Counted from the first letter of the stretch, positions 8,771 to 43,012 are shown. The stretch: 64,000 nt of DNA from Bacillota bacterium (GCA_040751775.1 JBFMGD010000003.1:19201-83200); one strand, 5' to 3'. Numbers and translations are program-made. Notes: generated from the letters alone by a model not told the origin.

Positions 8771-8811
8771 TGGGACAAGTGGGACAAGGGGACAGGTTCC
8801 TTGTCCCACTT
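8771..8811 (+). repeat. REP-like hairpin copy A (doubled left arm)
   Basis: TGGGACAAG-TGGGACAAG-GGGACAGGTTC-CTTGTCCCA; 13-bp stem 8777-8789/8799-8811. Confidence 0.9.
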
Positions 8812-8820
8812 AATTTTATA

Positions 8821-8867
8821 TGCAATGGGACAATGGGACAAGGGGACAGGTTTCTTGTCCCATTGCA
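8821..8867 (+). repeat. REP-like hairpin copy B (doubled left arm)
   Basis: TGCAA-TGGGACAA-TGGGACAAG-GGGACAGGTTT-CTTGTCCCA-TTGCA; alternative 12-bp and 13-bp stems. Confidence 0.9.
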
Positions 8868-8902
8868 ATGTTAATGGTAAAATGGTGCTGAGGTGACTAA
8901 TA

Positions 8903-9664: not shown

Positions 9665-9710
9665 AACTGGGACAAGGGACCTGTCCCCTTGTCCCACCTT
9701 GTCCCAGTTT
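9664..9710 (-). repeat. REP-like hairpin copy C (inverted relative to A and B)
   Basis: Minus strand reads AAAC-TGGGACAAGG-TGGGACAAG-GGGACAGGTCC-CTTGTCCCA-GTTT; 14-bp outer stem 9664-9677/9697-9710; overlaps the RAYT stop codon. Confidence 0.9.
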
Positions 9711-9716
9711 ATAGTT

Positions 9717-18275: not shown

Positions 18276-18299
18276 ATCGCTTCACCTGTGAGGTGGAAT

Positions 18300-20660: not shown

Positions 20661-21803
20661 ATGGATTTCATTCTCACCGAAGAGCAGGAGATGACCCGGC
20701 AGATGGTGCGCGGCTTTGCCGAAAAAGAGGTAAAGCCCGGCGCCGAGGAGAGGGATGATCAGGAGAGGTTTTCCCGCGAGATATTTGATAAAATGGGCCG
20801 CCTCGGTATCACCGGCATACCCTGGCCGGAAGAGTACGGCGGCGGCGGCTGTGATTTCATCAGCTACGTAATCGCCGTGGAAGAACTTTCCCGGGTCGAC
20901 GCTTCGGCCGGCACCACGCTTTCGGCGCATATCTCCCTGGCCGGCTGGCCGATCTTCAAATACGGCAGCGAAGCGCAAAAGAAAAAATATCTTGAACCGA
21001 TGGCCCTCGGGGAAAAACTGGGCGCCTACGGTTTAACGGAAGCGACCGCCGGCACTGATGCGGCGGGTTTGCGAACCACGGCCGTGCTTGACGGAGACAG
21101 CTACGTGTTAAACGGCAACAAGATCTTTATCACCAACGCCGGCGAGGCGGAAATATACATCGTTTTCGCCGTAACCGACAAGGAGAAGAAGACTAGAGGA
21201 ATCAGCGCCTTTATCGTGGAGAAGGGCACCCCCGGCTTTGCCTTCGGGAAAAAAGAACGCAAGATGGGGCTGCGCTCTTCGCCGACTTTGGAGCTCATTT
21301 TTGACAACTGCCGCGTGCCGCGGGAGAACATACTCGGGCAGGAAGGCGATGGTTTTAAAATCGCCATGAGCACCTTGGACGGCGGGCGGAACGGGATTGC
21401 CGCCCAGGCGGTGGGGATCGCCCAGGGAGCGCTGGAAGAGGCGGCCGCGTACGCGCAAAGCCGCGAGCAGTTCGGGCAGCCGATCGCGAACTTTCAGGCG
21501 ATCTCGTTTATGCTGGCCGATATGGCCACCAAGGTGGAAGCGGCGCGCCTGCTGACCTACCAGGCCGCATTCCTGGAAAGCCGCGGCTTGCCCTACGGTA
21601 AAGCTTCGGCGATGGCGAAGCTGTTTGCCTCGGAAGCGGCGATGGAGATTACCACGAACGCGGTGCAGATATTCGGCGGCTACGGTTACACCCGCGACTA
21701 TCCCGTGGAGCGCTTTATGCGCGACGCCAAAATTACGCAGATCTATGAAGGGACCAGTGAAGTACAGCGCCTGGTTATTTCCCGTTACGTGTTAAAAGGG
21801 TAG
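20661..21803 (+). CDS. Short/branched-chain acyl-CoA dehydrogenase (butyryl-CoA dehydrogenase-like)
   Basis: [52 protein letters not shown]. Confidence 0.93.
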
Positions 21804-21925: not shown

Positions 21926-22453
21926 ATGGGCGATCAAAAACGGGGTCTGGTCATGGTTTATACCGGTGACGGCAAGGGTAAAACCACGGCGGCTGTCGGT
22001 CAGGCGCTGCGGGCGCTCGGGCACGGATACCGTATCTATATGATTCATTTTATGAAAGGGCGCGATTACGGCGAATTTCTCGTCTCGGCCTACCTGCCCA
22101 ACTGGACGGTGGTCCGGACGGGGCGGGATGAATTTGTCGACCGGGAAAACCCGGCCCAGGTTGATATCGAACTGGCCCGGGACGGTTTTGAGCGGGCCAA
22201 GAAGGCGATCTTCAGCGGTGATTACGACCTGGTCGTGCTGGATGAAATCAACGTGGCCGTGGACTACGGTTTGATTCCCGAAGCGGAACTGCTGGCGCTG
22301 CTGGCGGAAAAACCGGCGCCGATAAGCTTAATCCTGACCGGACGCGGCGCTTCACCGGAACTGGTAAAACGGGCAGACATGGTCAGCGAGGTGCTGGCAA
22401 TTAAACATCATTATGACAGCGGCGTGCCGGACCGCAAGGGAATAGAGTATTAA
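21926..22453 (+). CDS. cobO: Cob(I)alamin adenosyltransferase (CobO/BtuR type)
   Basis: VYTGDGKGKTTAA, VVLDEINVA, LILTGR, terminal GIEY. Confidence 0.92.
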   Translation: MGDQKRGLVMVYTGDGKGKTTAAVGQALRALGHGYRIYMIHFMKGRDYGEFLVSAYLPNWTVVRTGRDEFVDRENPAQVDIELARDGFERAKKAIFSGDYDLVVLDEINVAVDYGLIPEAELLALLAEKPAPISLILTGRGASPELVKRADMVSEVLAIKHHYDSGVPDRKGIEY

Positions 22454-22576: not shown

Positions 22577-23530
22577 ATGCAGCAGTTGGTCGAAGAGTTG
22601 CTTGGCGGCAGCAGGCGCGCCCTGGCCCGCTTGATTTCGATCGTGGAAAACAGCGACCCGCGGAAGTATGCGATCCTGAAGGAGCTCTACCCCCATACCG
22701 GCAGGGCTTACGTGCTCGGCGTGACCGGGGCCCCCGGTTCAGGGAAGAGTTCCCTGGTAGACCGGCTGCTGCAGCTTGCCCGGCGGGACGGCTTGACGGC
22801 GGGCGTGATCGCCGTCGATCCGACCAGCCCCTTCTCCGGCGGCGCGATCCTCGGTGACCGGATCAGAATGCAGGATCACGCGCTTGATCCGGGCGTGTTC
22901 ATCCGCAGCATGGGCACCCGGGGCAGCCTGGGAGGCCTCTCCCGGGCTGCCGGGGAGGCTGTCCAGGTCCTGGATGCTTTCGGCAAAGATCTAATCCTGG
23001 TGGAGACCGTGGGGGTCGGACAATCGGAGATCGATATCGTGAAAACCGCCGATACGACGGTCGTGGTTTTGACTCCCGCCGGGGGTGACAGTGTCCAGAC
23101 CCTGAAGGCCGGGATCATGGAGATCGCCGATATTTTCGTGATTAATAAAGCCGACCTGCCCGGCGCGGAACGAACCGCAGCTGAGGTAAACGGTATGCTC
23201 GAGATGAAGGGTGGCTACGCCTGGCGCCCGCCGGTCGTAGCCACGGTCTCGACGCGTGATCAAGGGATCGAGGCGCTCTGGCAGGTGCTTGCGGATCACC
23301 GCTCTTACCTGGAGGAAAGCGGGCGGCTGCAGGCGGTGCGCAGAGAACGGGTGCGGCGGGAGCTGACCGAACAGGTGGAGCACCTGGTGAAAAGCGGTGT
23401 CTGGGATCGAATCAAGACGCTGGCCGCCCTGGAAAATTTACTGGAAGATATCGCCCGGCGCCGGGCTGATCCGTACAGCACGGCCCGCAAGCTGCTTGAA
23501 AAGATCAATTTCCCTCTTGCTGAAGAGTGA
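22577..23530 (+). CDS. meaB: MeaB/ArgK-family GTPase chaperone of B12 mutase
   Basis: GAPGSGKSS, AVDPTSPFSGGAILGDRIRM, ETVGVGQSE, NKAD. Confidence 0.95.
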   Translation: MQQLVEELLGGSRRALARLISIVENSDPRKYAILKELYPHTGRAYVLGVTGAPGSGKSSLVDRLLQLARRDGLTAGVIAVDPTSPFSGGAILGDRIRMQDHALDPGVFIRSMGTRGSLGGLSRAAGEAVQVLDAFGKDLILVETVGVGQSEIDIVKTADTTVVVLTPAGGDSVQTLKAGIMEIADIFVINKADLPGAERTAAEVNGMLEMKGGYAWRPPVVATVSTRDQGIEALWQVLADHRSYLEESGRLQAVRRERVRRELTEQVEHLVKSGVWDRIKTLAALENLLEDIARRRADPYSTARKLLEKINFPLAEE

Positions 23531-23544: not shown

Positions 23545-25209
23545 ATGGGAGAAGAGGACTTTACACTTAAGATCAGGGAAGAGCAACAACTGTGGCGGGA
23601 ACAGCAGGAGCAACAGCAAGAGCGCCCGGAACCTTTTACCACGGTTTCCGGCGAGCCGGTGAACGATCTTTATACACCGGCGGACATTGCCGGGTTGGAT
23701 TACCTGAAAGATCTGGGGTTCCCCGGCTGCTATCCCTATACCCGGGGGGTGCAAAGCAACATGTACCGGGGCCGGCTCTGGACCATGCGCCAGTTTTCCG
23801 GCTTCGGAGACGCTTTTGACTCCAACCGGCGCTACCGCTACCTGCTGGAGCAGGGCCAAACTGGTTTAAGTGTGGCCTTCGATATGCCCACAATCATGGG
23901 CTACGACTCCGATCACCCCCGCGCACTGGGTGAGGTGGGCCGCTGCGGGGTGGCGATCGATTCCCTGGCTGATATGGAGATACTTTTTGACCGGATTCCA
24001 CTCGACCAGATTACCACATCGATGACCATAAACGGGCCTGCCGCCATCCTCTGGTGCATCTACCTCGCGAATGCGGAAAAACAGGGTGTACCATTGGAAA
24101 AAGTGGGCGGCACCATCCAGAACGACATCTTGAAGGAATATATCGCCCAGAAATCGTGGATTTTCCCGCCGGAGCCTTCGATGCGCCTGATTACCGATAT
24201 CTTTGCGTTTGCCGCGCGCCGTGTCCCCCGCTGGAATACCGTCAGCATCAGCGGTTACCACATCCGGGAAGCGGGCTCCACTGCGGTGCAGGAGCTGGCC
24301 TTCACCCTGGCGGACGGGTTCGCTTACGTGGAAGCGGGGATCAAAGCCGGCCTGGATGTGGATACTTTCGCGCCGCGGCTCTCTTTTTTCTTTAACGCTC
24401 ATCTTGATTTCTTTGAAGAGATCTGTAAATACCGCGCGGCCCGGCGCATCTGGGCGCGCCGCATGAAAGAGCGTTACGGGGCCAGGGATCCCCGTTCGTG
24501 GATGCTGCGCTTCCACACCCAGACCGCGGGCTGCAGCCTTACCGCCCAGGAACCGGAAAACAATATCGTCCGGACAACGCTCGAAGCGCTGGCGGCGGTG
24601 ATGGGCGGGACCCAGTCGCTGCACACCAATTCCATGGACGAAGTGCTGGCCCTGCCTACCGAAAAAGCCGTGAAGATCGCCCTGCGCACACAGCAGATTA
24701 TCGCCTATGAAAGCGGCGTGGCCAACACGATCGATCCCCTGGCCGGCTCCTACTTCGTGGAAGCGTTGACCGGCCGGATGGAAGCGGCGGCTGAAGACTA
24801 TTTCCGCCGCATCGAAGAGCTCGGCGGAGTGCTCGCCGCCATTGACTGCGGCTTTTTTCAGCAGGAGATCGCCGATGCCGCCTACAGCTACCAGCAAGCC
24901 GTCGATCGCGGCGAACGGGTCGTGGTGGGGATGAACCGTTTTGCCGGCGGGGAGCTGCCGCAAATCGAACTGCTGAGAATCGATCCGGCGGTGGAGCGAA
25001 AACAGGTCGAGCGGCTGCAAGCGCTGCGTGAAAAGCGTGACGCAATCGCGGTGGCGGGCAGCCTCGAGCGGTTAAAGAAAGCGGCGGCCGGTCCGGAAAA
25101 CCTGGTTCCTTATATCCTGGAAGCGGTGAAACTCTACGCCACCGAAGGGGAAATCGTGGCGGCGCTGAAAGAAGTCTTCGGGGAATACCGGGAGAAGCCG
25201 CTTTTTTAA
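23545..25209 (+). CDS. icmA: Acyl-CoA mutase large subunit, isobutyryl-CoA mutase type (IcmA-like)
   Basis: [10 protein letters not shown] (Phe, where MCM has Tyr) and [13 protein letters not shown] (Gln, where MCM has Arg); [15 protein letters not shown]; no fused B12 domain. Confidence 0.82.
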
Positions 25210-25210
25210 G

Positions 25211-25245
25211 AAGTGAGAAGTGGGAAGTGAGATGTGGAAAGTGGG
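25211..25245 (+). repeat. Five tandem imperfect heptamers (consensus AAGTGRG)
   Basis: AAGTGAG-AAGTGGG-AAGTGAG-ATGTGGA-AAGTGGG between icmA stop and icmB RBS. Confidence 0.75.
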
Positions 25246-25266
25246 AAAAGTAAGGAGGTTTTTTCG

Positions 25267-25674
25267 GTGGAGCGGAAAATTAGGGTACTGGTGGCGAAGC
25301 CGGGCCTGGACGGGCATGACCGCGGGGCCAAGGTAGTGGCGCGGGCATTGCGGGATGCGGGGATGGAGGTAATTTACACCGGACTGCACCAGACGCCCGA
25401 GCAGGTAGCCGAAGCGGCGCTGCAGGAAGATGTGCATGTCGTCGGTTTGAGCATACTATCCGGCGCGCACATGACCCTGGTGCCCAGAATCAGAGCACTG
25501 CTCGATGAAAGGCAGCTGCGCGATGTCCTGCTGCTGGTCGGCGGCATCATCCCCGCGGATGAAGCCGCAGAACTTAAGAGCAAGGGCTACGCGGCCGGAG
25601 TGTTTACGCCGGGGGAGCCGCTCGATGCCATTATTAATTTCATTCGCGCGCAAGCAAGTCCAGCCGAAGTATAA
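25267..25674 (+). CDS. icmB: Cobalamin-binding small subunit of the mutase (IcmB-like)
   Basis: [14 protein letters not shown] (DxHxxG), [15 protein letters not shown]; GTG 25267 after AAGGAGG. Confidence 0.88.
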
Positions 25675-28078: not shown

Positions 28079-30208
<2,130 letters not shown>

Positions 30209-30238: not shown

Positions 30239-30253
30239 AATATTCTGAAAAGT
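30239..30253. promoter_or_regulatory. Putative CodY box upstream of the BkdR-like gene
   Basis: AATATTCTGAAAAGT matches 13 of 15 positions of AATTTTCWGAAAATT. Confidence 0.55.
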
Positions 30254-30314
30254 GGCTCGTGTATGCTGAATTGGGCAGCGGCGGTATGTTCAATTAAGGG
30301 GGAGGGGTAGAGCG

Positions 30315-31970
30315 GTGCTTTCTGATCTGCGTTTGGCAAAGCCCTGGTGCGATATCCTAGACGCCCTGGATGAAGCGATTATTCTGCTCGATCAAGATCT
30401 GCGGGTCGTGCTCTGCAACGCCAAGGCCGGCCGGCTCTGCGGCTCCGATCCCGAGCGGTTCCTGCAAACAATGCTGGAACCGAAACTGGGCAAAGAGGGC
30501 GCGGCGCCGCCCGATCTGGAACTGGCGGGCAAACTGTTTTCAGTGCAAACAATCGAAACCGCGGAGCGCGCCTGGATCTTGCTGCGTGAAAAACGCTCCG
30601 GCTTGCCGGCGGGCGAGGCAGGCCGCCTCCTGCTGCAGGCGATTATCGATTCGCTTTCCGACGCTGTCTCGGTGGTGGACGAAAACGGGATGGGCCTGAT
30701 GTTCAATCGCGCCTATACCCAGCTGACCGGGTTGAACGAAGACCAGGTGCTGCAGCAGCCGGCAACAGTAGATATCGCCGAGGGGGAAAGCGTCCATTTT
30801 AAAGTTTTAAAGACCGGGAAGCCGGTGAAAGGGGTGCGCATGAAGGTTGGCCCGTACAAACGCGATGTCGTGGTCAGCTGCGCTCCGCTGGTGATCAACG
30901 GCCAACTGAAGGGCAGCGTCGGGGTGATCCACGATATCTCCGAGATCAGGCGTTTGCTGGAGGAGTTGGCGCGGACAAGACACCTGGTGCGCCGCCTTGA
31001 ATCCCGCTACACTTTTGAAGATATCGTCGGGCAGAGCTGCCGGTTGCGAGAGACGGTGGAGCGTGCCCGCCAGGCGGCGGGAACCCCGGTCAGCGTACTG
31101 CTCAGAGGAGAGTGCGGCACCGGCAAAGAGTTGGTCGCCCACGCCATCCACCACACCAGCGAGCGGGCCGAACAGCCATTTATCCGGGTCAATTGCGCTT
31201 CGCTTACCGATACCCTCCTGGAAAGCGAGCTCTTCGGTTACGCCGACGGCGCTTTTACCGGTGCGAAGAAGGGCGGGCGCAAGGGCTATTTTGAGGAAGC
31301 GCACCGGGGCACCTTGTTTCTGGATGAAATCGGCGCGATGAATCAGGAAGCGCAGGCCAGGCTGCTGCGCGTTTTGCAGGAAGGGGAAATTATGCGCGTC
31401 GGCGAATCCAGGTCCCGGGCGATTGACGTGCGGATTATCGCCGCCACCAACGCCGATTTGGAAGAGATGGTTCAGGGCGGCCGTTTCCGCAAGGACCTCT
31501 ATTACCGCCTGAACGTATTTCCGATTACCCTGCCCCCGTTAAGGGAAATTAGAGAAGATATCCCCCTTTTGGCCGATTACTTTGTCAAAAGATACGGCCA
31601 GGAATACGGGCGCCTGGCGGTGGACATTTCACCGGCTGCGTACCGGCGCCTGCAGGAATATGCCTGGCCGGGCAATATGCGCGAGCTGCAGAACGTGATC
31701 GCCCGGGCCTTGATCAACCTGGGCCGGGATGAGGTGATCATCGGCGAAGAGCACCTCACGATTCCCTTCGCCACTCGCGGCGGGGAAATAGAAAGCGCGG
31801 CAGAGTCCTACCGGGGAGGCGCCCTGGCCGAACTGCAGCAGGCCTGGGAAAAAGAGTTGATTCAGAATGTTTTGCAGCAGACAGGCGGCAATAAAACCGA
31901 GGCCGCCCAGCGTCTGAAAATCTCCATCCGCACGCTCTACAACAAGATCGAGCGCCATCAGCTGCAATGA
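30315..31970 (+). CDS. bkdR: PAS-domain sigma-54 enhancer-binding protein, BkdR-like
   Basis: GECGTGKE, ESELFGY..GAFTGA, FLDEIG, DLYYRLNV, WPGNMRELQN, Fis-type HTH; PAS segment ATVDIAEGESVHFKVLKTGKPVKGVRMKVGP resembles Bacillus BkdR as I recall it. Confidence 0.75.
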   Translation: MLSDLRLAKPWCDILDALDEAIILLDQDLRVVLCNAKAGRLCGSDPERFLQTMLEPKLGKEGAAPPDLELAGKLFSVQTIETAERAWILLREKRSGLPAGEAGRLLLQAIIDSLSDAVSVVDENGMGLMFNRAYTQLTGLNEDQVLQQPATVDIAEGESVHFKVLKTGKPVKGVRMKVGPYKRDVVVSCAPLVINGQLKGSVGVIHDISEIRRLLEELARTRHLVRRLESRYTFEDIVGQSCRLRETVERARQAAGTPVSVLLRGECGTGKELVAHAIHHTSERAEQPFIRVNCASLTDTLLESELFGYADGAFTGAKKGGRKGYFEEAHRGTLFLDEIGAMNQEAQARLLRVLQEGEIMRVGESRSRAIDVRIIAATNADLEEMVQGGRFRKDLYYRLNVFPITLPPLREIREDIPLLADYFVKRYGQEYGRLAVDISPAAYRRLQEYAWPGNMRELQNVIARALINLGRDEVIIGEEHLTIPFATRGGEIESAAESYRGGALAELQQAWEKELIQNVLQQTGGNKTEAAQRLKISIRTLYNKIERHQLQ

Positions 31971-31997
31971 GACAGTAACAACAATCCATCTCCGCAA

Positions 31998-32720
31998 CTA
32001 ATGGGTTATGATCATCCCGTCTTGCAGCTTTACCTGCCCGCGGCAGTGGTCCATGACTCCCTGGTCATGGGTGGCCACTACCACGGTCAGCCCTTCGCGG
32101 TGAAGGCTGTCCAAAAGCTCCATGATCTGATCCCTGGTTTGCGAATCCAGGTTGCCGGTTAACTCGTCCGCCAGGATCAGCCGCGGTTCCCGGACCAAAG
32201 CCCTGGCAATCGCGACCCGCTGCTGCTCCCCGCCGGAAAGCTGGGCGGGTTTATGGCGCGTTCTTTCGCCAAGCCCCACCCGTTCCAGCAGGATCTTCGC
32301 CCTGGCCGCGGCGGATTCCCCGGGAATGGACCGGCGTTTGCCGGTCTGCCCCCCGGCCTCGTGCAGATACGGCAAAAGCGGGACCATCACGTTTTCCAGA
32401 GCCGTAAGCTGGGGCAGCAGGCGGAAGTCCTGGAACACGAAGCCCACCGTTTTCGCGCGCAGAGCGGTCAGTTCCTGAGGCTTCGCGGCGCCGGTACAGA
32501 TGCCGTTGAGATAGACTTCCCCTTCCGTAGACAATTCCATCGCGCCGATGATCCGCAGCAGCGTAGACTTGCCGGAGCCGGAATGGCCAACCACGGCCAA
32601 GTAATCCCCGGCCTTGATTGCCACGGATATGTTTTGCACGGCGCGGACTTCGCTATAGCCCATATGATAAATCTTGGTCGCGTTTATTAATGTAACGATA
32701 CTGACATTATCTTCAGTCAT
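31998..32720 (-). CDS. LolD/MacB-type ABC ATPase, no permease partner visible
   Basis: [43 protein letters not shown]. Confidence 0.9.
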
Positions 32721-33765
32721 TACTTTGTCCCTCCTTAGTCACTTCCCGCAACACGCGGTCAAGGAAGCAGATATCTTGGCCCAAGATTTCGGGGATGATC
32801 CGGTCCAGGGTATCTTTATGGGTATTGCTGTAGGGCGAAAACCGCCAGTAGGTTGCCGTCGGCGCTCCGGTTTCCAGCAGGCGCAAACCTAAGTCTGTGG
32901 GAGATGCCGGCAATACCCCGATTTTTAGGTCCTTATCCACTGTTTCCGCTGCGGTCATCCAGTGATCCGGTGTGACCATTATTTCTGCCCGGCCTTCGGA
33001 ACTTAGCCGTTTATAGATGTAAGGGTAATCAAGGTCCCATAAATGGCTCCTGTGCTGGGGCGGCGGGTCGATGAACTTGATATAATCTTCCGGCGCCAGG
33101 TCCGGGGCGTCCGGAGGCAAATCCCGGGGCCTGCCGAAAAGGGTGTCGCGCCTGAAACCAAAGACAGCCGGTTGATCGGTCCCCAACCGGCACAGAGCCA
33201 GGGCGGCGCCGGGCAGGGTTTGTTCGTCCAGGTAGTGAGCCAGCCCTCCGGTGTATTGAGCGTCACCGCCCGCGGTCCACATGATCCTTACAGGGACAGG
33301 CAGCGGATTATCGTTCAGAAGCCGGGCGAGCACGGCGGCCCCGGCCGCGCCGCTCGCGTTGTCCGACACGCCCGGACCGATACTGCCGTGGTTCGTGATC
33401 ATCCAGACCGGTTCGCCTTCGGCCGCTGTACCGGGGTTATCCACTCAAATATTTTCCGAAGTGTACCCCGGAATTATTTCAAGAACCTTCAAGATTAATA
33501 TGGCAGGTTTTTCCGCGTTTACCGTACCCGGATTGACACCCACTATCGCCAAGGGAGTCGCTTCAAGCTGAAAAATCCACTGCCCTTCTTCAACCAGTTC
33601 CATGACAGGCTTGCCCTGGACAGTCAATCAGTGGAAAAATACCTGTCCGTCTTTAACGCCTGTGGGGACCGGCTGGAATACTGCCGCGCCGTCTTCTTCC
33701 AGGGCTTGATAGGCTATGCCGCGCGTGGTATAGTACCCGGTCGCCGGGGCGATATAATGCAGGCC
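32713..33765 (-). pseudogene. Decayed M28-peptidase-like gene with two in-frame TGA codons
   Basis: One frame runs 33765 to 32713, broken by TGA at 33630-33628 and 33447-33445; SENI*VD...TNHGSIGPGVSDNASG resembles the M28 N-x-x-...-AHxD...GAxDNASG block; several Zn ligands absent; no start codon found. Confidence 0.6.
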
Positions 33766-33829
33766 TTAGCTTGGTGGAATAGTAAACAGATGGGTTGCGG
33801 AGACATAGAAGGGTAATCTTCATCCGTCC

Positions 33830-33845
33830 TGGTACGGCAATTGCA
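33830..33845 (+). promoter_or_regulatory. Sigma-54 (-24/-12) promoter for the Leu/Val dehydrogenase and oxidoreductase operon
   Basis: TGGTACG-GCAA-TTGCA versus TGGCACG-N4-TTGCW; about 50 bp upstream of the start. Confidence 0.85.
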
Positions 33846-33897
33846 AACTAATGAATACAAAATAAAGAAAAGTTAAACAACGGGAGGGTTGCATGGT

Positions 33898-34959
33898 ATG
33901 GCCGGTTACTTCGGCAGAATGGAGTCCCTGGGTTTTGAAGAGCTGATCATGGTGCACGACTCCCCGACAGGGCTGAAAGCGGTCATCGCCATTCACAGCA
34001 CCTTGCGCGGTCCGGCTTTGGGCGGCACCCGGATGTGGGCCTATCCATCCGAAGAGGCGGCGGTGGAAGATGTGCTCCGCCTGGCCCGCGGGATGACCTT
34101 CAAAGCCGCGGCGGCGGAGCTTTCCCTGGGAGGCGGCAAGGCGGTAATCATGGGCGATCCCGGGCGGGATAAGAGCAAGGCGCTGTTTCAAGCATACGGC
34201 CGTTTCGTGGATAGGCTGCAGGGCCGTTTTCTAACCGCCGAGGATATGGGCACCTGCGAGCAGGACCTGGACTGGGTCCGCGCGGAGACCGCGCATGTGA
34301 TCGGGGGCAGCGCCTGCGGCAGCCCGTCTCCGTATACGGCGTACGGGGTCTGGCGCGGCATGAAAGCCGCGGCCGCGGCTGCTTTCGGCAGTGCATCCCT
34401 TTCCGGGCTGGTTGTGGCGGTCCAGGGCCTGGGCGGCGTAGGTAGTTGTCTGTGCCGCTACCTGGCCGAAGAGGGGGCGGCGCTGATCGTCACGGATTTG
34501 GACGCGGCCAGGGCTGCCGCGGCGGCGAAGCAATGGGGCGCCCGGGTTGTGAAAGCGGCGGATATTTATGCGCAAAAGTGTGATATCTTTGCGCCGTGCG
34601 GCGTCGGCGCGATCATTAATGCCGAAACCATCCCGCTGCTACAGTGCCGGATCGTCGCCGGCGCGGCAAACAATGTCCTGCTGGAAGAAGCCGACGGAGT
34701 TGCCTTGCACCACCGCGGTATATTGTATGCTCCTGATTACATCATCAACGCCGGTGGCTTGATCTTTGTAGATGCATGCCGCAGGGGCGCCGCCGATTCC
34801 GATCAAGTTTACCGGGATACGGGCCGGATTGAGGGGAGGCTGGCCCGGTTGTTCCACCGGGCCGCCGGACAGGGTTTAACCCCGGAAGCTGCGGCCGCTC
34901 TGCTGGTGGAAGAAAATATGCGCAAGCAAGCAAACAGCGAACCGGAAATAGCGCCGTAG
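33898..34959 (+). CDS. Glu/Leu/Phe/Val dehydrogenase, leucine/valine dehydrogenase-like
   Basis: IHSTLRGPALGGTR, LGGGKAVI, TAEDMG, VQGLGGVG, GAANN, YAPDYIINAGG. Confidence 0.9.
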   Translation: MAGYFGRMESLGFEELIMVHDSPTGLKAVIAIHSTLRGPALGGTRMWAYPSEEAAVEDVLRLARGMTFKAAAAELSLGGGKAVIMGDPGRDKSKALFQAYGRFVDRLQGRFLTAEDMGTCEQDLDWVRAETAHVIGGSACGSPSPYTAYGVWRGMKAAAAAAFGSASLSGLVVAVQGLGGVGSCLCRYLAEEGAALIVTDLDAARAAAAAKQWGARVVKAADIYAQKCDIFAPCGVGAIINAETIPLLQCRIVAGAANNVLLEEADGVALHHRGILYAPDYIINAGGLIFVDACRRGAADSDQVYRDTGRIEGRLARLFHRAAGQGLTPEAAAALLVEENMRKQANSEPEIAP

Positions 34960-35020
34960 AGAAGAATGAACCTGGCTGCATGCAAAATTCTGCAAATTGC
35001 AGTTGAAGGGAGGCGGCAAA

Positions 35021-35605
35021 ATGGAAGGGTTAACCGAATTTCGATTACACGGCCGGGGCGGCCAGGGCATTGTGATGGCGGCGGCCATATTCGCGGAAGC
35101 CGTTTTTAATGAGGGCCTTTACGCCCGCGCCTTTTCCCTTTTCGGAGCGGAGCGCCGCGGCGCCCCGGTAACCGCCTTTATCCGGGTCAGCGAGGCCCGG
35201 TTGATGCCGCGCTGCCGGGTCTACCGGCCGGATTACGTCGCGGTTCTTGACTCGAGCATGAACAGCACCGCCGTTCTGGCGGGGCTTGATCAAAAGAGCA
35301 GGCTGCTGATCAATGCCGACCGGGATGAAAAAGCCGCGCGTTTTGGGGAAGGGACGGCAAATGAGCGTTACCCGGCATATCTAGTGGACGCAACCGGCCT
35401 CGCCATGCAGTATCATCTCACGATCGGCAGTTTTCCGATGGTGAACACGGTCATGGTGGGGGCGCTGGCGCGGATTAGCAATTTGGCCACCCTGGAGAGT
35501 GTCTGCGCGGTGGTTGAAAAACGGATCTCCACCCGCCTGGAAGACAATCTCAAAGCGGCCGCGGTGGGCTTTAATCAGGTCAGGGAGGTGATCGCCGTTG
35601 CTTAA
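35021..35605 (+). CDS. 2-oxoacid oxidoreductase gamma subunit
   Basis: FRLHGRGGQG, FGAERRGAPV, NTVMVGAL. Confidence 0.92.
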   Translation: MEGLTEFRLHGRGGQGIVMAAAIFAEAVFNEGLYARAFSLFGAERRGAPVTAFIRVSEARLMPRCRVYRPDYVAVLDSSMNSTAVLAGLDQKSRLLINADRDEKAARFGEGTANERYPAYLVDATGLAMQYHLTIGSFPMVNTVMVGALARISNLATLESVCAVVEKRISTRLEDNLKAAAVGFNQVREVIAVA

Positions 35606-37151
35606 CCGGGCGGATCGGCCAAAAGCGCTTTACTCGTGCGGCGATAGGCCGTCCCTGGACAACAAGACCGGCGATTGGCGCCAGATTACGCCAACCGAAG
35701 CGGGCCGGCCCTCGCCGTGCCGGCAGGCCTGCCTTTTGGATGGCGAAATACCCGCGTGGCTGGAGGCGGTCAAGGGGGAGCGCTGGGAGGAAGCGTGGCG
35801 GATCATGCGCCGCTCCAACCCCTTTCCGGCGATCACCGGCCGCGTCTGTTTTCACCCTTGTACCATGGAGTGCAACCGCCGCTTGATGGATCAGGCGATC
35901 GATATCCCGGCAATGGAACGGGCCATCGGTATGTGGCGCCTGGAGCGTTACCGTCCTCCCGCCGCGCCGCGCGTTTTACGGGGCCGGGTGGCTGTGATCG
36001 GTTCAGGGCCGGCGGGCTTAAGCTGCGCTTACTATCTGAATGAGGCCGGTTACCGCGTGACAATCTTTGAAAAGGCCCCGGTGGCGGGCGGGATGCTGGC
36101 CCTGGGCATTCCCTCTTACCGGCTGCCCCGGGAGCTGTTGGCCGAAGAGTTAAAGGTATTAACCGCGGACGGCGTGCAATTCAGGCTGGACAGCGCCTTG
36201 GGCCGCGACTTTAACCTTGAACAACTGTACGGCGAGTTCGATCAGCTTTTCCTCGCTACCGGCGCCTGGCGCTCCCGTGCACTGAACATACCGGGAGCGG
36301 ACCGGCCGGGAACTTGGAGCGCCTTGGATTATCTAACCCGGATTCACCTCGGCGAAACCGTGCCCCTGGCGGAACCGGTGGTGGTGATCGGCGGCGGCAA
36401 CGCCGCGGTGGATGCGGCGCGCACGGCCCTGAGAGAAAACGGGATGCGGCGCGTCAGCATTCTCTACCGCCGGAGCAGGGCAGAGATGCCTGCCGATCCA
36501 GCTGAAGTGGAAGCGGCGGCGGCTGAAGGGGTGGAGTTAATCTTTAACGTCATCCCCCGGGAGATAAAAGGCGGCGAACCGCTGCTGAAAGTGCTGCTCG
36601 ACCGCACCGTTTCCGGAGACGGCGGTGTGAAAATATTGCCTGACGACCCTGTTTCCATGGCTGCCGGCAGCCTGATCTACGCCCTGGGACAGGAGCCGGA
36701 CCTTTCTTTCCTTGACCGGCTGTCCCAGCCGCGATTTTTCTACGCCGGCGGTGACCTGATCACCGGTCCGGCTACCGTTCCCGAAGCGATCAAAGCGGGC
36801 CGCATCGCCGCCCAGGCCATCGCCGGCCGGCTTGCCGGGCGGCCGGAAACGGCGGCGCCGCCGGCCCAGGGCGCGCCGGTGACCTTTGACCAATTAAACC
36901 TATGGGCTGTAACCGCGCCCCAACCGGTGGAGCGCCAGGCTGATCCGGCGGAGGAAGCGGGGCGCTGCCTGGGGTGCGGCACCTGTAACTCGTGCGGGAT
37001 CTGCTACCTGTTTTGCCCCGACGTGGCGGTGCAGCGCGAACAGGGCCGCTATTCAATCAATCTGGACTACTGTAAGGGTTGCGGCATCTGCGCCCGGGAA
37101 TGCCCGGCGCGGGTGCTGACCCTGGAAGGAGGCGCGGGCTATGCCAGTTGA
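35598..37151 (+). CDS. GltD/NfnB-like FAD/NAD(P)H oxidoreductase fused to a PorD-type 2x[4Fe-4S] delta domain
   Basis: NPFPAITGRVCFHPC, VIGSGPAGL, VIGGGNAA...YRRSRAEMPA, C-terminal CNSCGICYLFCPD...YCKGCGICARECP. Confidence 0.85.
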   Translation: MLNRADRPKALYSCGDRPSLDNKTGDWRQITPTEAGRPSPCRQACLLDGEIPAWLEAVKGERWEEAWRIMRRSNPFPAITGRVCFHPCTMECNRRLMDQAIDIPAMERAIGMWRLERYRPPAAPRVLRGRVAVIGSGPAGLSCAYYLNEAGYRVTIFEKAPVAGGMLALGIPSYRLPRELLAEELKVLTADGVQFRLDSALGRDFNLEQLYGEFDQLFLATGAWRSRALNIPGADRPGTWSALDYLTRIHLGETVPLAEPVVVIGGGNAAVDAARTALRENGMRRVSILYRRSRAEMPADPAEVEAAAAEGVELIFNVIPREIKGGEPLLKVLLDRTVSGDGGVKILPDDPVSMAAGSLIYALGQEPDLSFLDRLSQPRFFYAGGDLITGPATVPEAIKAGRIAAQAIAGRLAGRPETAAPPAQGAPVTFDQLNLWAVTAPQPVERQADPAEEAGRCLGCGTCNSCGICYLFCPDVAVQREQGRYSINLDYCKGCGICARECPARVLTLEGGAGYAS

Positions 37152-38283
37152 GATGATTACCGGGAACCAGGCCGCCGCTCTGGCCGCACAGCGAGCCGGG
37201 GTGGACCTGGTGGCCGCTTACCCGATCACTCCCCAGACCGCCATCGTGGAATATCTGGCCGAGTTTTGGGCCCGGGGTGAGCTGGGCGGGGAATTTGTGA
37301 GCGTGGAATCGGAATATGCCGCTCTGGCCTGCAGCAGCGGCGCCGCGGCGCTGGGCGCCCGTACTTTTTCCGCCACCTCATCACACGGCCTGGCATATAT
37401 GCATGAAATGCTGCACTGGTGCGCCGGGGCGCGTTACCCGATGGTCCTGGTTAATGTGAACCGGGCCCTGGGCGCGCCGTGGTGCCTGGAGCCTGACCAG
37501 GGAGACAGCCTCAGCCAACGTGACACCGGTTGGCTGCAGCTGTATTGCGCAAATGCCCAGGAAATATTTGATACCATCTTGCAGGCATTCGCCCTCGCTG
37601 AAACGATCATGATCCCTTGCATGGTTGTTTTCGACGGTTTCTATCTTTCCCACACCTATGAAGCGGTGGAAGTGCCGGACCAGGAAACGGTGCGCCGCTT
37701 TCTGCAGCCCCCTTCTTTTGATCCGCCGCTGGTCCCCGGCCGGCATGCCAACCTGCATGCTTTGACCACGGGAGAGGTGCAAACCGGGCTGATCCGCGAA
37801 CGCCACCGGGTGATGCAGGGGGCTGCAGCTGTTTTGGCCGAGATCGACACCCGCTTTCAAGCAGTCTTCCAGAGGGGTTACGGCGCTTTGGCCGCGGAGA
37901 TACCGGCCGGCGCGAAAACAGTGGTTTTGGCGGCGGGCAGCTGCGCTGAAACTGTGAGGTGGCATCTGCCTCACCTGGCCGGAACAGGGCTGATCAACCT
38001 GAGAATGTTCAGGCCGTTTCCGGGTGATATCCTCTGCCGTATGCTGGAAGAAAAAGCGGTGGAGCGAGTGGTGGTCGTCGATCGCAACTGTTCGCCCGGC
38101 GTGGGAGGTATTCTGGCCCAGGAGCTGAAAGCAGCCCTTTACCGGATGGCGCAGCCTCCGGTTGTGCATGACCTGCTATTGGCCGGCGGTATCGATTTCA
38201 CACCGCGGATGCTGACTGAGGCCCTGGCGGAAAAAAGAGCCAGTGCAAGATCTGCCGAGATCTGGGGGGTGGAACTGTCATGA
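37141..38283 (+). CDS. 2-oxoacid oxidoreductase alpha subunit
   Basis: TGNQAAA, AAYPITPQT, VESE, TFSATSSHGL, RMFRPFP. Confidence 0.93.
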   Translation: MPVEMITGNQAAALAAQRAGVDLVAAYPITPQTAIVEYLAEFWARGELGGEFVSVESEYAALACSSGAAALGARTFSATSSHGLAYMHEMLHWCAGARYPMVLVNVNRALGAPWCLEPDQGDSLSQRDTGWLQLYCANAQEIFDTILQAFALAETIMIPCMVVFDGFYLSHTYEAVEVPDQETVRRFLQPPSFDPPLVPGRHANLHALTTGEVQTGLIRERHRVMQGAAAVLAEIDTRFQAVFQRGYGALAAEIPAGAKTVVLAAGSCAETVRWHLPHLAGTGLINLRMFRPFPGDILCRMLEEKAVERVVVVDRNCSPGVGGILAQELKAALYRMAQPPVVHDLLLAGGIDFTPRMLTEALAEKRASARSAEIWGVELS

Positions 38284-39167
38284 TCGGGGAGAACAAGGGC
38301 CAGGTAACCGAAATGCTTTACCCGGGACATTTTGCCTGCCCCGGATGCGGCGCCGCCCTGACGGTGCGCTATTTGACCCGTGCCCTCGGTGAGGATCTGG
38401 TAGTGGTGATTACCGCCTCTTGTTGGAGCATTATCGCCGGGGTGCCGCCGCTAACCGCATTGAAATGCCCGATCCTGCACTGCCCGTTTCCGAGCGCCGG
38501 CGCGGTGGGCGGCGGGGTCAGGCGCGGCCTGGACGTCAAGGGAGCGCACGGTACCACCGTTGTAGTTCTGGCCGGCGACGGCGGGACATTTGATATCGGC
38601 TTGCAGGCTCTCTCCGGAGCCGCCCAACGCAATGAAAATTTCATTTTCGTTTGTTACGACAATGAGGCTTATATGAATACCGGGATGCAGACCAGTTCAG
38701 CCACGCCGTACGGCGCCCGGACCAACACAGCTCCCTACCCCCTGTTTAAAGAAGGGCGTAAAAAAGATATTATCCAGATCATGTCGGCTCACGGTATACC
38801 CTACGCCGCCACGGCCACGGTCGCCTTTCCCGACGACCTCGAGCAAAAATTCCGGAAGGCCAAGGAAATAGAGGGCTTTCGATTCATCCATGTCCTCTCA
38901 CCATGCCCGCCGGGTTGGGGCGTTGAATCGGCGGAAACGATTCAGATTTCCCGGTTGGCGGTGGAAACATGCTTTTTTCCGCTTTATGAAATTATCGACG
39001 GCGGTTCCATGCAGTTGACCTACCGCCCCCCTGTCCAGAAAAAGCTGGAGCAGTACCTGTCGGCGCAGCGGCGCTACAGCGGTTTGCATGAACAGCAGCT
39101 CGAGAAGCTGCAGCAGGATGTTGACCGGCATTGGGAGAAGCTGCTCCGGTTGTCCGGTCGATCCTGA
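38280..39167 (+). CDS. 2-oxoacid oxidoreductase beta (TPP-binding) subunit
   Basis: GHFACPGCG, GDGGTFDIG...YDNEAYMNTG, LSPCPPGW. Confidence 0.93.
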   Translation: MIGENKGQVTEMLYPGHFACPGCGAALTVRYLTRALGEDLVVVITASCWSIIAGVPPLTALKCPILHCPFPSAGAVGGGVRRGLDVKGAHGTTVVVLAGDGGTFDIGLQALSGAAQRNENFIFVCYDNEAYMNTGMQTSSATPYGARTNTAPYPLFKEGRKKDIIQIMSAHGIPYAATATVAFPDDLEQKFRKAKEIEGFRFIHVLSPCPPGWGVESAETIQISRLAVETCFFPLYEIIDGGSMQLTYRPPVQKKLEQYLSAQRRYSGLHEQQLEKLQQDVDRHWEKLLRLSGRS

Positions 39168-40179: not shown

Positions 40180-41022
40180 GTGCGCGAACTGAAAGCGGAA
40201 ACGATATCGGAGGTTGTGGCGGCGATGTGCCAGGAAGCCAATATTTACCTGGGTGAAGACGTTGTGCAGGCTTTAAAGAACTCCTTGCAGATCGAAGAAT
40301 CCCCTACCGGCAAAGAGGTGCTGCAGCAGCTCATCGAAAACGTGGCCATTGCCCGTAACGAGCAGATCCCCGCCTGCCAGGATACCGGTTTTGCCGTTTT
40401 TTTCGTGGAATGGGGCCAGGAGGTCCACCTGACCGGAGCAACCCTGGAGGATGCCGTCAACGAGGGGGTGCGCCGGGGCTACCGGGACGGCTTTTTGCGT
40501 AAATCGATCGTTAAAGATCCATTGAACCGGGTTAATACCGGGGACAATACCCCGGCTGTAATCCATTTGACCATGGTGCCGGGCGATCAGGTTAAGATTG
40601 CGTTCGCCCCGAAGGGCGGCGGCAGTGAAAACATGAGCACCGTGAAGATGCTCAATCCTTCAGACGGCGAGCAGGGCCTGGTCAATTGCGTGGTCAACCA
40701 CGTCCGGGATGCCGGACCCAATCCCTGCCCGCCGATCGTGGTCGGAGTGGGCTTCGGCGGCACCTTTGAAAAAGTGGCGCTCTTGGCGAAAAAAGCCCTC
40801 TTCAGGCCGGTGGGTGAACCGAACGGCGACCCGTTTTACGCCGCGCTGGAACAAAAAATCCTGGAGCGCGTCAATAAACTCGGAATCGGCCCCCAGGGTT
40901 TCGGCGGTCGCGTCACCGCTCTGGCGGTGCACATAGAGGTGCATCCCTGCCATATTGCCAGTATGCCGGCGGCGGTAAACATCAACTGCCATGCCGCGCG
41001 CCACGTTGAGCGGGTGATCTAA
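40180..41022 (+). CDS. Class I fumarate hydratase, alpha subunit
   Basis: PACQDTG, LRKSIV, NTGDNTP, PKGGGSEN, PCPP, HIASMP. Confidence 0.92.
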   Translation: MRELKAETISEVVAAMCQEANIYLGEDVVQALKNSLQIEESPTGKEVLQQLIENVAIARNEQIPACQDTGFAVFFVEWGQEVHLTGATLEDAVNEGVRRGYRDGFLRKSIVKDPLNRVNTGDNTPAVIHLTMVPGDQVKIAFAPKGGGSENMSTVKMLNPSDGEQGLVNCVVNHVRDAGPNPCPPIVVGVGFGGTFEKVALLAKKALFRPVGEPNGDPFYAALEQKILERVNKLGIGPQGFGGRVTALAVHIEVHPCHIASMPAAVNINCHAARHVERVI

Positions 41023-41059
41023 TGAGACAAGCAGCGGTATACGAAAGGAGGAACAGCCA

Positions 41060-41614
41060 GTGGAACTGAAACGACTGCGCGCTCCCTTAAGCGATGCTGA
41101 TGTTCTCCAGTTAAAGGCGGGCGATAACGTTTTAATCAACGGCGTCATCTATACGGCCCGGGACGCTGCGCATAAGAAACTGGTCGAGTTGATGGAGAAG
41201 GGTGAAGCGCTGCCGATCGATTTAACCGGCCAGTTTATCTATTACGTGGGTCCCACTCCGGCCCGGCCGGGTCAGGCTATCGGCTCCGCCGGTCCGACAA
41301 CCAGCGGCCGCATGGATGCCTATACCCCGCAAATGCTGGCGCACGGGATGAAAGGCTGTATCGGCAAGGGGTTTCGCAGCACCGCGGTTAAGGATGCCCT
41401 GCAGCAATACAAGGGAGTCTACCTTGCCGCCGTGGGAGGAGCAGGGGCGTTGCTTTCCAAGTGTGTGCACAAATGTGAAGTAGTGGCTTACCCCGAACTG
41501 GGCGCCGAAGCGATTCACCGGCTGGAGGTCGCAGATTTCCCCGCGACCATTATTAACGACGCGTACGGCAACGACCTCTACCTGGAAGGGGCGAAACAGT
41601 ACCGCATCGAGTGA
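41060..41614 (+). CDS. Class I fumarate hydratase, beta subunit
   Basis: YTARDAAHKK, YYVGP, GPTTSGRMD, IGKG, GGAGAL. Confidence 0.92.
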   Translation: MELKRLRAPLSDADVLQLKAGDNVLINGVIYTARDAAHKKLVELMEKGEALPIDLTGQFIYYVGPTPARPGQAIGSAGPTTSGRMDAYTPQMLAHGMKGCIGKGFRSTAVKDALQQYKGVYLAAVGGAGALLSKCVHKCEVVAYPELGAEAIHRLEVADFPATIINDAYGNDLYLEGAKQYRIE

Positions 41615-41674
41615 GGAAAGGTGAGCCCGGTTACAGCACCGGGCATAGAAAGCATAAGAAAGGTGGTTTTTTAA

Positions 41675-43012
41675 GTGCCGATGAATAAAGATGAACTGCT
41701 GGCCAAGGCGAAGAAACCGGCTGAGGATGCCATGAAGCTGCACCCTTTTTACAAGGGTAAAATTGAGGTAAACTTAAAAAGCTGCGTGCGCGGTATCGGC
41801 GATTTCGCGATCTGGTATACGCCCGGCGTGGCTGAACCGTGCAAAGCGATCGCCCGGAATAAGGAAGATGTCTACAAGTATACGAATAAGGGTAACTTTC
41901 TGGCGGTAATCTCCGACGGCACCCGGGTGCTGGGCTTGGGCGATATCGGCCCCGAGGCCGGCATGCCCGTGATGGAAGGAAAAGCGCTGCTTTTTAAATA
42001 CTTAGGCGGCGTGGACGCATTTCCGGTCTGCGTGGATACCAAGGACGCCGATGAATTGATCAAGTTTGTCAAATTGATCCAGCCCTGCTTCGGCGGCGTG
42101 AACCTGGAAGATATCGAGAGCCCCAAGTGCTTCTACATCCTTGACAGATTGAAGGAAGAGTGCCACATTCCGGTCTGGCATGACGATCAGCAGGGCACGG
42201 CCATGGTCAACCTGGCCGGTCTCTACAATGCGCTCAAAATCGTCGGCAAGAAAATCGGCCAGGTCAAGATAGTGATGCTCGGCTCGGGCGCAGCCAATAT
42301 CTGTACCGCCCGGCTGCTGATCGCCGCCGGCGTGGACCCCGGCAAGATCGTGATGTGCGACAGCAAGGGTACCCTGCACAAGGGGCGCACCGAACTGAAA
42401 GAAAAACACCCGGTGAAGTGGGAACTGTGCCAGACGACCAACGCCGGCGGCCTGGTTGGCGACGCAGCCGCTGCTTTCCAGGGGGCGGATGTGGCCATTT
42501 GCCTCTCCACACCCGGGCCCGACACGGTGAAAAAGGAATGGGTTACCAGCATGGCCAAAGACGCGATCGTCTTCGCCTGCGCCAACCCTATCCCCGAGAT
42601 CTGGCCGTGGGAAGCGATCGAAGCCGGCGCCAAAATCGTCTCGACAGGCCGCTCCGATTTCCCCAACCAGGTTAACAATTCCCTCGGCTTTCCGGCCATC
42701 TTCCGCGGTGTTTTGGATGTTCAGGCGACCACCATTACCGACAGCATGTGTATCGCCGCCGCGCAAGAGCTGGCTGCCTGCGCGCCGGACGGCGGGCTGA
42801 ATCCTGAAAAAATCTTGCCGACCATGGACATGTGGGAAGTATTCCCCCGTGTCGCCACCGCCACGGCGCTCAAAGCGATCGAAGAGGGGGTGGCGAGGAT
42901 CAAGCTCAGCCGCGAGGAAATTTATAATAAAGCAGAGCAAACAATTCGCCGGGCCCAGGAGCAGACCAAAAGCGCAATGGAGCAAGGATTTATTCCGGCA
43001 CCGCCTGCTTAA
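41675..43012 (+). CDS. NAD(P)-dependent malic enzyme
   Basis: WYTPGVAEPC, SDGTRVLGLG, MPVMEGKA, NLEDI, HDDQQGT, GAANI, ACANPIPEI, SDFPNQVNN. Confidence 0.95.
   Translation: MPMNKDELLAKAKKPAEDAMKLHPFYKGKIEVNLKSCVRGIGDFAIWYTPGVAEPCKAIARNKEDVYKYTNKGNFLAVISDGTRVLGLGDIGPEAGMPVMEGKALLFKYLGGVDAFPVCVDTKDADELIKFVKLIQPCFGGVNLEDIESPKCFYILDRLKEECHIPVWHDDQQGTAMVNLAGLYNALKIVGKKIGQVKIVMLGSGAANICTARLLIAAGVDPGKIVMCDSKGTLHKGRTELKEKHPVKWELCQTTNAGGLVGDAAAAFQGADVAICLSTPGPDTVKKEWVTSMAKDAIVFACANPIPEIWPWEAIEAGAKIVSTGRSDFPNQVNNSLGFPAIFRGVLDVQATTITDSMCIAAAQELAACAPDGGLNPEKILPTMDMWEVFPRVATATALKAIEEGVARIKLSREEIYNKAEQTIRRAQEQTKSAMEQGFIPAPPA

Follow-up and report, generated by a model that had tools for sequence, protein, structure and literature searches.

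A putative sigma-54-activated operon for branched-chain amino-acid catabolism, with a predicted NADP+-linked 2-oxoacid oxidoreductase, near an isobutyryl-CoA mutase cluster in a Bacillota genome

The locus described here occupies positions 30239-39167 of a 64,000-nucleotide (nt) stretch of DNA from an uncultured, anaerobic Bacillota bacterium (GCA_040751775.1), referred to below as the window, which corresponds to C23:19201-83200 of the source genome. That genome comprises 2.83 Mb in 95 contigs, with approximately 60% G+C and 98% completeness. In order, the locus carries a CodY-like box, a gene for a sigma-54 enhancer-binding protein (the activator), a -24/-12 promoter, a leucine/valine-type dehydrogenase gene, and genes for the gamma, flavoprotein-delta, alpha, and beta subunits of a 2-oxoacid:acceptor oxidoreductase. 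All of these elements had been listed in an earlier sequence-only reading of the window, and all were found where that reading had placed them. A cluster encoding a mutase and beta-oxidation enzymes lies further upstream. We conclude that the locus is probably a sigma-54-activated operon for the catabolism of branched-chain amino acids, linked to NADP+ and feeding isobutyryl-coenzyme A (CoA) mutase (IcmAB) and beta-oxidation.

The whole analysis was performed in silico, using domain and family profiles (Pfam and NCBIfam), PDB matches, synteny, and co-distribution. The host family in GTDB contains 73 species genomes in 23 genera, every assembly being multi-contig (30-450 contigs). The comparison set consisted of 22 related loci, namely 20 regions from family genomes and 2 loci from a reference-genome scan, which were annotated using the proteins of the window as queries. 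Among the reference-genome matches listed, the nearest named relative was a metagenome-assembled genome labelled Syntrophomonadaceae bacterium (L004).

The activator gene (30315-31970, + strand) encodes one or two PAS domains, an AAA+ domain (PF00158, 232 bits) with the GAFTGA motif, and a C-terminal HTH_8 domain. In 20 related loci, an orthologue with 67-78% identity takes up the equivalent position. Among named NCBIfam models, PrdR matched the protein best, with a score half of the cut-off. RpoN is encoded in the genome (446 bits, above cut-off), as are 14 paralogues of the activator. The promoter, TGGTACGGCAATTGCA (33830-33845, + strand), has the GG-N10-GC pattern and is located 52 nt upstream of the probable ATG of the dehydrogenase gene. 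A loose sigma-54 pattern gave 22 matches in the genome compared to approximately 11 expected, showing that the pattern by itself is not rare. As a lone match of this kind is weak, the promoter was judged by comparative conservation instead. Of the 20 activator-bearing loci, 19 have the sequence TGGYAY-N4-ATTGCN 3' of the activator gene, at 9-1320 nt past the activator stop codon, and it was absent from both activator-less loci (L106 and L113). That promoter and regulator covary in approximately 12 genera, whose proteins are 55-75% identical, is good support for the predicted sigma-54/activator regulon. The co-occurrence of promoter and activator throughout the family also upholds the earlier proposal of a bkd-like operon under the control of sigma-54 and the activator. 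The recurrent gene order in the related loci was activator, LeuDH (0-2 copies), gamma, flavo-delta, alpha, and beta, and in the window the oxidoreductase genes overlap successively by 8, 11, and 4 nt. A second, internal sigma-54 promoter before gamma was considered and rejected, as inspection by eye found no GG-N10-GC in register.

The dehydrogenase gene (33898-34959, + strand) lies in an open reading frame (ORF) that opens with a TTG at 33889; its probable start is the ATG at 33898, which follows GGGAGGG. The best PDB matches of the protein were true leucine dehydrogenases (LeuDH; 6acf, 358 bits, and 1leh, 341 bits), compared to 296 bits for tryptophan dehydrogenase and 196 bits for phenylalanine dehydrogenase (PheDH). 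Five of the 6 LeuDH pocket residues of 1LEH are kept (L40, G41, G42, A113, and V294). The protein passed no NCBIfam LeuDH cut-off. Members of the family differ in their number of LeuDH copies (0-2), with two in L103 and L104 and none in L105, L107-L110, and L113. The promoter of L108 is followed by a short stretch similar to the N-terminal coding sequence of LeuDH, and this remnant suggests that the loss of LeuDH was secondary.

The four genes that follow complete a four-subunit 2-oxoacid:acceptor oxidoreductase. Gamma (35015-35605, + strand; ORF from 34997, probable ATG at 35015) matched TIGR02175 PorC_KorC with 164 bits against a cut-off of 81. Flavoprotein-delta (35598-37151, + strand) has 517 amino acids and contains a Fer4_20, flavin adenine dinucleotide (FAD), and NADP(H) module within a delta subunit that bears 2x[4Fe-4S]. 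Alpha (37141-38283, + strand) has the POR_N and PFOR_II domains, and beta (38280-39167, + strand) has the thiamine pyrophosphate (TPP)/[4Fe-4S] and TPP_enzyme_C assignments. No convincing lipoamide E1 was found in the genome, where the best match to PF00676 was partial and scored 28 bits; the departure from a lipoamide-dependent branched-chain dehydrogenase that had been proposed earlier is therefore sustained.

The delta subunit is the least conventional part of the enzyme. Its residues 19-32 (SLDNKTGDWRQITP) form an NKTGxWR arm, residues 39 to approximately 420 form an NfnB/GltD module, and residues 455-510 form the 2x[4Fe-4S] delta domain. The flavo module was recognised by PF14691, PF07992, GSGPAG (FAD), GGGNAAVD, and a YRRS loop, and its best PDB matches were NfnB-like (9n5u, 8oh5_C, and 4ylf_B). 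When the N-terminus and C-terminus of delta were joined in one construct, it aligned to the solved PorD 9bt4_G over residues 13-78 of the latter. As the arm is N-terminal and the ferredoxin domain C-terminal to the module, the predicted protein is an NfnB-like flavoprotein inserted inside a PorD-type delta rather than a plain head-to-tail fusion. Among 19 homologues, the Cys residues, GxGxxG, Y290, and R291 were invariant and R292 was nearly invariant. In-frame stops had been flagged in the fusion genes of relatives; the one that was checked (G046) was a natural stop read through by the aligner.

The YRR motif in NfnB and DsrL-2 binds the 2'-phosphate and tracks NADP(H) specificity (PMC7596348). 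Because the NfnB/GltD-like module carries a YRR loop, NADP+ is predicted as the acceptor, and the simplest reading is that the enzyme is likely a 2-oxoacid:NADP+ oxidoreductase. The earlier description of the enzyme as ferredoxin-type thus holds as a label for the enzyme family but not for the acceptor. No gene for an NfnA-like partner and no evident second electron branch were found, so bifurcation is not indicated. Full-length flavo-delta orthologues were present in approximately 51 of the 73 family genomes. Flavo-delta relatives with 33-40% identity stand beside gamma, alpha, and beta genes in many phyla, and the reference-genome scan gave at least 560 relatives among the first 600 pattern matches listed.

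Upstream of the operon, the mutase/beta-oxidation cluster opens with the two genes of a CoA-transferase (16395-17417 and 17505-18275, + strand), both of which matched Pfam CoA_trans and are syntenic in relatives. These are followed on the same strand by a thiolase (18288-19481; NCBIfam acetyl-CoA C-acetyltransferase, 563 bits, above cut-off), two acyl-CoA dehydrogenases (ACADs; 19507-20637 and 20661-21803, by ACAD family matches), a cob(I)alamin adenosyltransferase (21926-22453), a MeaB chaperone (22577-23530), an isobutyryl-CoA mutase (ICM) large subunit (23545-25209), and a B12-binding mutase small subunit (25234-25674). The large subunit has Phe (WTMRQF) at the position of Tyr89 of methylmalonyl-CoA mutase (MCM) and Gln (YIAQK) at that of Arg207. 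Assignment of the mutase to the isobutyryl-CoA type is well supported by these residues, and the identification as IcmAB made from sequence earlier is strengthened by the Phe/Gln signature together with the separate B12 subunit and MeaB. The best PDB match was 4r3u, a 2-hydroxyisobutyryl-CoA mutase; this identity was rejected because the equivalents of its Ile90 and Asp117 are Phe and Ala here (GLSVAFD). Crotonase, 3-hydroxyacyl-CoA dehydrogenase (HBD), and thiolase genes are present elsewhere in the genome, for example beside a thiolase on C12. A second acyl-CoA mutase pair, 64% identical, is located at C70:3993-6132 and has the RQY Tyr of MCM; the genome therefore holds both MCM-type and ICM-type enzymes.

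In the model that we favour, the PAS-containing activator would open the sigma-54 promoter at 33830-33845, an inducer of the operon being a supposed part of the model, and a single, translationally coupled transcript would carry leuDH, gamma, (flavo)delta, alpha, and beta. LeuDH would deaminate valine, leucine, or isoleucine with NAD+, and the TPP/Fe-S oxidoreductase would convert the resulting 2-oxoacid and CoA to acyl-CoA and CO2. Electrons would pass from the [4Fe-4S] cluster of beta to the 2x[4Fe-4S] of delta, then to the Fe-S and FAD of the NfnB-like module, and finally to NADP+; free ferredoxin would not be expected as an acceptor. Isobutyryl-CoA derived from valine could then be converted to butyryl-CoA by the neighbouring IcmAB/MeaB and to two acetyl-CoA by beta-oxidation. 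LeuDH-type deamination with NAD+ is strongly endergonic, and the electrons of the decarboxylation have a potential of roughly -500 mV, compared to -320 mV for NADP+. By dumping low-potential electrons on NADP+, the enzyme would make decarboxylation strongly exergonic and could thereby pull the unfavourable NAD+-linked deamination.

The link between the two clusters was assessed across the 73 family genomes. The flavo-oxidoreductase and the mutase were both present in 48 genomes, the oxidoreductase only in 3, the mutase only in 10, and neither in 12, which corresponds to an odds ratio of 19 (p = 1e-5, uncorrected for phylogeny or assembly incompleteness). The two clusters were on one contig within approximately 12 kb in 26 genomes from 12 genera. 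The check suggested by the sequence-only reading, namely whether the clusters are co-distributed, thus came out positive, with synteny in addition. Family-wide adjacency to the ICM/beta-oxidation genes suggests that valine may be burned to acetate and not excreted as isobutyrate. Anaerobic valine oxidation is usually described as ending in excreted isobutyrate, which is left to other syntrophs.

A second, compact array was found in genome G023 (L112, G023:C2:20000-34000, positions 4903-11378, - strand) with the order vorB-beta-gamma-ACT-LeuDH-fdx-icmA-icmB. Its LeuDH has 47% identity, fdx encodes a small 2x[4Fe-4S] ferredoxin, and icmA-icmB have the Phe/Gln signature, so that both functions are united with no housekeeping gene between them. 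Because the family synteny is ambiguous, this independent array is the weightiest single indication that ICM and LeuDH/VOR may act together. A GntR-type regulator gene is located near this array in place of a sigma-54 activator.

Several observations weigh against the favoured interpretation, and those that concern the link come first. The gene ligA (28196-30208) always separates the two clusters, joined in many genomes by an epimerase gene and a TetR gene, and no promoter is shared. Synteny also runs on into housekeeping genes on both sides, including purH/purD and fumarase genes; with ligA between the clusters and synteny this wide, their closeness by itself is a weak argument for co-regulation. 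Genus g10 lacks the linkage (in G031, the clusters are on contigs C2 and C4). These points favour an alternative in which valine is oxidised only to isobutyryl-CoA and isobutyrate leaves via the CoA-transferase, while the mutase cluster serves external isobutyrate or butyrate and the adjacency is merely inherited. Such an account would suit the 10 genomes that have the mutase without the flavo-oxidoreductase, and an ICM cluster with an adenosyltransferase and MeaB is already accounted for by isobutyrate degradation in Syntrophothermus lipocalidus (PMC5017805). However, inherited synteny fits poorly with the G023 array and with the strength of the co-occurrence, and isobutyryl-CoA of any origin would be a substrate in a cell that expresses ICM. 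We regard this alternative as rather unlikely. Of the earlier proposal of a route from valine to acetyl-CoA, the ICM identity, the co-distribution, and the G023 array speak in favour, whereas the argument from proximity is weakened by ligA. Taken together, these data make a pathway link from valine oxidation to the mutase cluster plausible and, in our judgement, somewhat probable.

The remaining points against the favoured interpretation concern the acceptor and the substrate of the oxidoreductase. For two of the Cys residues that bind the distal cluster of NfnB, the flavo module offers no clear equivalent (compared to PMC7596348). Both alpha and beta scored under every curated NCBIfam cut-off, with similar Vor and Por scores. 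The top model for beta was the 3-methyl-2-oxobutanoate dehydrogenase beta subunit, with 359 bits against a cut-off of 405, followed closely by PorB with 335; for alpha, the best model was archaeal PorA with 320 bits, and the Vor model gave 298 against a cut-off of 646. As the Vor cut-offs were missed, the assignment to branched-chain 2-oxoacids rests on gene context. The position equivalent to V291 in the dehydrogenase is occupied by Leu, the PheDH-type residue. Moreover, the four-gene module occurs without LeuDH in many phyla (Actinomycetota, Pseudomonadota, and others) as well as in 6 of 20 loci examined in the family, and a Rhodoferax module is annotated as a phenylglyoxylate:acceptor oxidoreductase (PMC2755013). 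These findings would be expected if the enzyme acted mainly on another 2-oxoacid (pyruvate, phenylglyoxylate, phenylpyruvate, or 2-oxoglutarate), with LeuDH as an accessory added in some lineages.

In contrast, in genome G015 (L115, 11353-15132) the activator, promoter, and LeuDH are followed by genes for VorB (542 bits, the cut-off being 399), beta, and gamma, so that an above-cut-off VorB occupies the equivalent slot. The LeuDH-type dehydrogenase and this VorB together lend support to the branched-chain 2-oxoacid substrates proposed at the outset. The apparently secondary loss of LeuDH in L108 is also contrary to the accessory role, the PadG and PadI models scored far below the Vor and Por models (2-5 times lower), and separate PFOR-like and other oxidoreductase paralogues are present on C89, C34, C25, and C17. 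A main role with another 2-oxoacid is accordingly an outside chance, although the substrate range of the oxidoreductase may be wider than branched-chain 2-oxoacids. The flavo-oxidoreductase of G015 itself appears to have been displaced non-orthologously by the VorB enzyme, and a fumarase gene comes directly after. In G013 (L114), just a weak (32%) alpha-like match was found 3' of LeuDH.

If the operon ran in the anabolic direction, isobutyryl-CoA would be supplied from butyrate or isobutyrate by way of the mutase, reductive carboxylation and amination would turn it into valine, and CodY would repress the genes at high levels of branched-chain amino acids. In favour of this, the reactions can in principle be reversed, rumen anaerobes carry out reductive carboxylation of isobutyrate to valine, the LeuDH equilibrium lies on the amination side, and a box of the CodY type would be in keeping with a biosynthetic role. 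This direction is highly improbable, as IlvC and IlvD are encoded above cut-offs, so that an ordinary valine pathway exists and the operon is unneeded for valine synthesis, which argues for a catabolic role; NADPH (about -320 mV) would be a poor donor for a carboxylation at roughly -500 mV; and PAS-bearing sigma-54 activators beside LeuDH are catabolic in Bacillus (PMC4428206).

The favoured catabolic operon contains one further conserved element. A TGCA-repeat element, TGCAAAATTCTGCAAATTGCA (34981-35001, + strand), abuts the ribosome-binding site of gamma and occurs once in the genome. It is conserved in 16 related loci with 4-5 TGCA cores, the form in relatives being ATGCAATATTnTGCAnGCAAACAATTGCAAATTGCAGnATnTTGCAAGGAGG. 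The cores make TGCAA/TTGCA inverted repeats, and they lie in the LeuDH-gamma spacers of L004, L005, L096-L102, L105, and L107-L111. The element is kept even in loci that have lost LeuDH. It is missing from L103 and L104, where the activator is present, and from the activator-less L106, and it is reduced in L113, where the activator gene is a remnant only. Neither covariation nor an Rfam family match was found for the element. To look for an upstream activating sequence, the 170 nt that precede the promoter were compared by k-mers across 19 loci; only words of the activator coding sequence emerged, and no shared motif. In several loci the activator stop codon is just 9-22 nt from the -24 element, leaving no space for an upstream enhancer; the TGCA element is thus possibly the site of the activator, placed downstream. 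We hypothesise that the element may be an activator binding site downstream of the promoter (a downstream enhancer) or an operator.

A more far-reaching version of the model can be offered only tentatively, and we consider it doubtful as a whole. In this version, an uncultured family related to Syntrophomonadaceae would carry out the complete conversion of valine to acetate by one conserved super-cluster, consisting of activator, LeuDH, and oxidoreductase with IcmAB and beta-oxidation. The NfnB-like module inserted in delta would send electrons of approximately -500 mV to NADP+, or would split or merge them by flavin-based bifurcation together with another enzyme, for instance the soluble fumarate reductase next to the operon, and deamination would be pulled in this way. 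The TGCA element would be a downstream enhancer.

The locus combines systems of known kinds, namely the bkd regulon of Bacillus, oxidoreductases of the VOR and Pad types, and the ICM cluster of syntrophs. The bkd operon of Bacillus subtilis and B. thuringiensis consists of bkdR and ptb-bcd(LeuDH)-buk-lpdV-bkdAA-bkdAB-bkdB; sigma-L/sigma-54 and BkdR are required, and CodY and TnrA act too (PMC4428206, PMC2743287). Likewise, the locus in the window has an activator gene upstream of the operon in the same orientation, PAS in the activator (two in B. thuringiensis BkdR), a -24/-12 promoter about 45-50 nt before the first gene, and a LeuDH gene in one operon with a 2-oxoacid-oxidising enzyme, together with CodY in the genome and a CodY-like box in the locus. 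In the window, however, a TPP/Fe-S oxidoreductase replaces lipoamide E1/E2/E3, ptb and buk are absent, and the CodY box precedes the activator gene and is not conserved. The activator is likened to BkdR by its architecture and gene context, not by sequence orthology. A reconstruction of the sigma-54 regulon in Clostridiales did not include control of branched-chain catabolism of the sigma-54/BkdR type (PMC6615313).

The oxidoreductase resembles VOR (VorABCD of Thermococcales; VorABC of methanogens and clostridia) in its superfamily and in its set of gamma, delta, alpha, and beta subunits, and its beta scores best against Vor beta. It differs in the NfnB-like FAD/NADP(H) insertion of approximately 380 residues in delta and in the predicted acceptor, NADP+ here compared to ferredoxin for VOR. 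To our knowledge, the Pad enzyme is the only characterised precedent for such pyridine-nucleotide-linked logic; it has five separate subunits, with the delta and the flavoprotein unjoined. As far as it is summarised in PMC2755013 and PMC5109826 (from Hirsch et al. 1998), PadEFGHI of Azoarcus evansii is a phenylglyoxylate:NAD+ oxidoreductase, which is like the enzyme of the window in passing electrons from a 2-oxoacid to a pyridine nucleotide, in its case via an extra FAD subunit, but unlike it in using NAD+ and an aromatic substrate. No characterised oxidoreductase with GltD/NfnB fused to delta was found in the literature searched, in which only the Pad enzyme and the Rhodoferax annotation surfaced, and a 2026 PFOR review does not mention flavo-delta enzymes. 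The flavo module shares with NfnB, GltD, and DsrL an N-terminal Fe-S domain followed by FAD and NAD(P)H domains, has the YRR loop of NfnB and of the NADP(H)-specific DsrL-2, and, like DsrL, is followed by a C-terminal 2x[4Fe-4S] ferredoxin domain (PMC7596348). Unlike in those proteins, the module here is within a PorD subunit, between the NKTGxWR arm and the ferredoxin domain.

Separate large and small mutase subunits, an adenosyltransferase, MeaB, and the Phe/Gln signature are shared with Slip_0757-0760 of Syntrophothermus lipocalidus and with Streptomyces IcmAB (PMC5017805). The cluster in the window differs from those ICM systems in that genes for a CoA-transferase, a thiolase, and two ACADs belong to it, and in its position next to the LeuDH/oxidoreductase operon. 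In Streptomyces, the link between valine and ICM runs through an aerobic lipoamide branched-chain dehydrogenase.

If the interpretation is true, the presence of LeuDH, oxidoreductase, ICM, and beta-oxidation in one organism would shorten the food chain in digesters and sediments, and control of branched-chain amino-acid catabolism of the sigma-54/BkdR type would be extended to strict anaerobes. Direct reduction of NADP+, if shown, would mean that a family usually regarded as dependent on ferredoxin also includes a class linked to pyridine nucleotides. The NADP(H) module inserted in delta is the most testable of the new items.

The sequence-only reading had also assigned the locus to a sigma-54/CodY regulon. 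CodY is encoded in the genome (TIGR02787, 356 bits against an NCBIfam cut-off of 267). The CodY-like box, AATATTCTGAAAAGT (30239-30253, unstranded), matches AATTTTCWGAAAATT at 13 of 15 positions and is 62 nt before the activator start codon. Sites with no more than 2 mismatches to AATTTTCWGAAAATT numbered 9 in the 2.83 Mb genome compared to 2.2 expected by base composition. No sigma-70 promoter was found at the box. At the equivalent position in relatives, whose spacer between ligA and the activator gene is short, no CodY box was found. The closest relative, G044 (L096), has a 13/15 box, TATTTTCCGAAAATT, approximately 40 nt upstream of the -24 element, and four relatives (L096, L004, L098, and L099) have a half-box, ATTTTCYG, 35-67 nt ahead of their -24 element, compared to approximately 0.2 expected; the window itself has no such box or half-box just upstream of the sigma-54 promoter. 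CodY control is thus only weakly indicated: the box is rare in the genome and a CodY gene is present, but the position of the box is not conserved in relatives. CodY input somewhere in the locus is plausible, but the box at 30239 is no more than a candidate site for it.

Between the activator gene and the promoter, the window carries two genes that the sequence-only reading had omitted, an ABC ATPase (31998-32720, - strand) and a 243-amino-acid ORF resembling M28 peptidases (32713-33444, - strand). The pair is missing from all 22 related loci and is, for this reason, called a recent insertion; judged by that comparison it is specific to this lineage, unique to the source genome, and outside the regulon. 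The insertion moves the promoter to 1.86 kb from the activator gene. Approximately 100 nt before the sigma-54 promoter, in sequence that relatives lack, TTGATA-17-TATAGT preceded by TG makes a good sigma-70-like promoter (33706-33734, + strand), which could provide activator-independent read-through into the operon. On the other side of the operon, fumarase and malic-enzyme genes are located 3' of the oxidoreductase genes (40180-43012 in the window; 15305-16150 in L115), and they are also found there in relatives.

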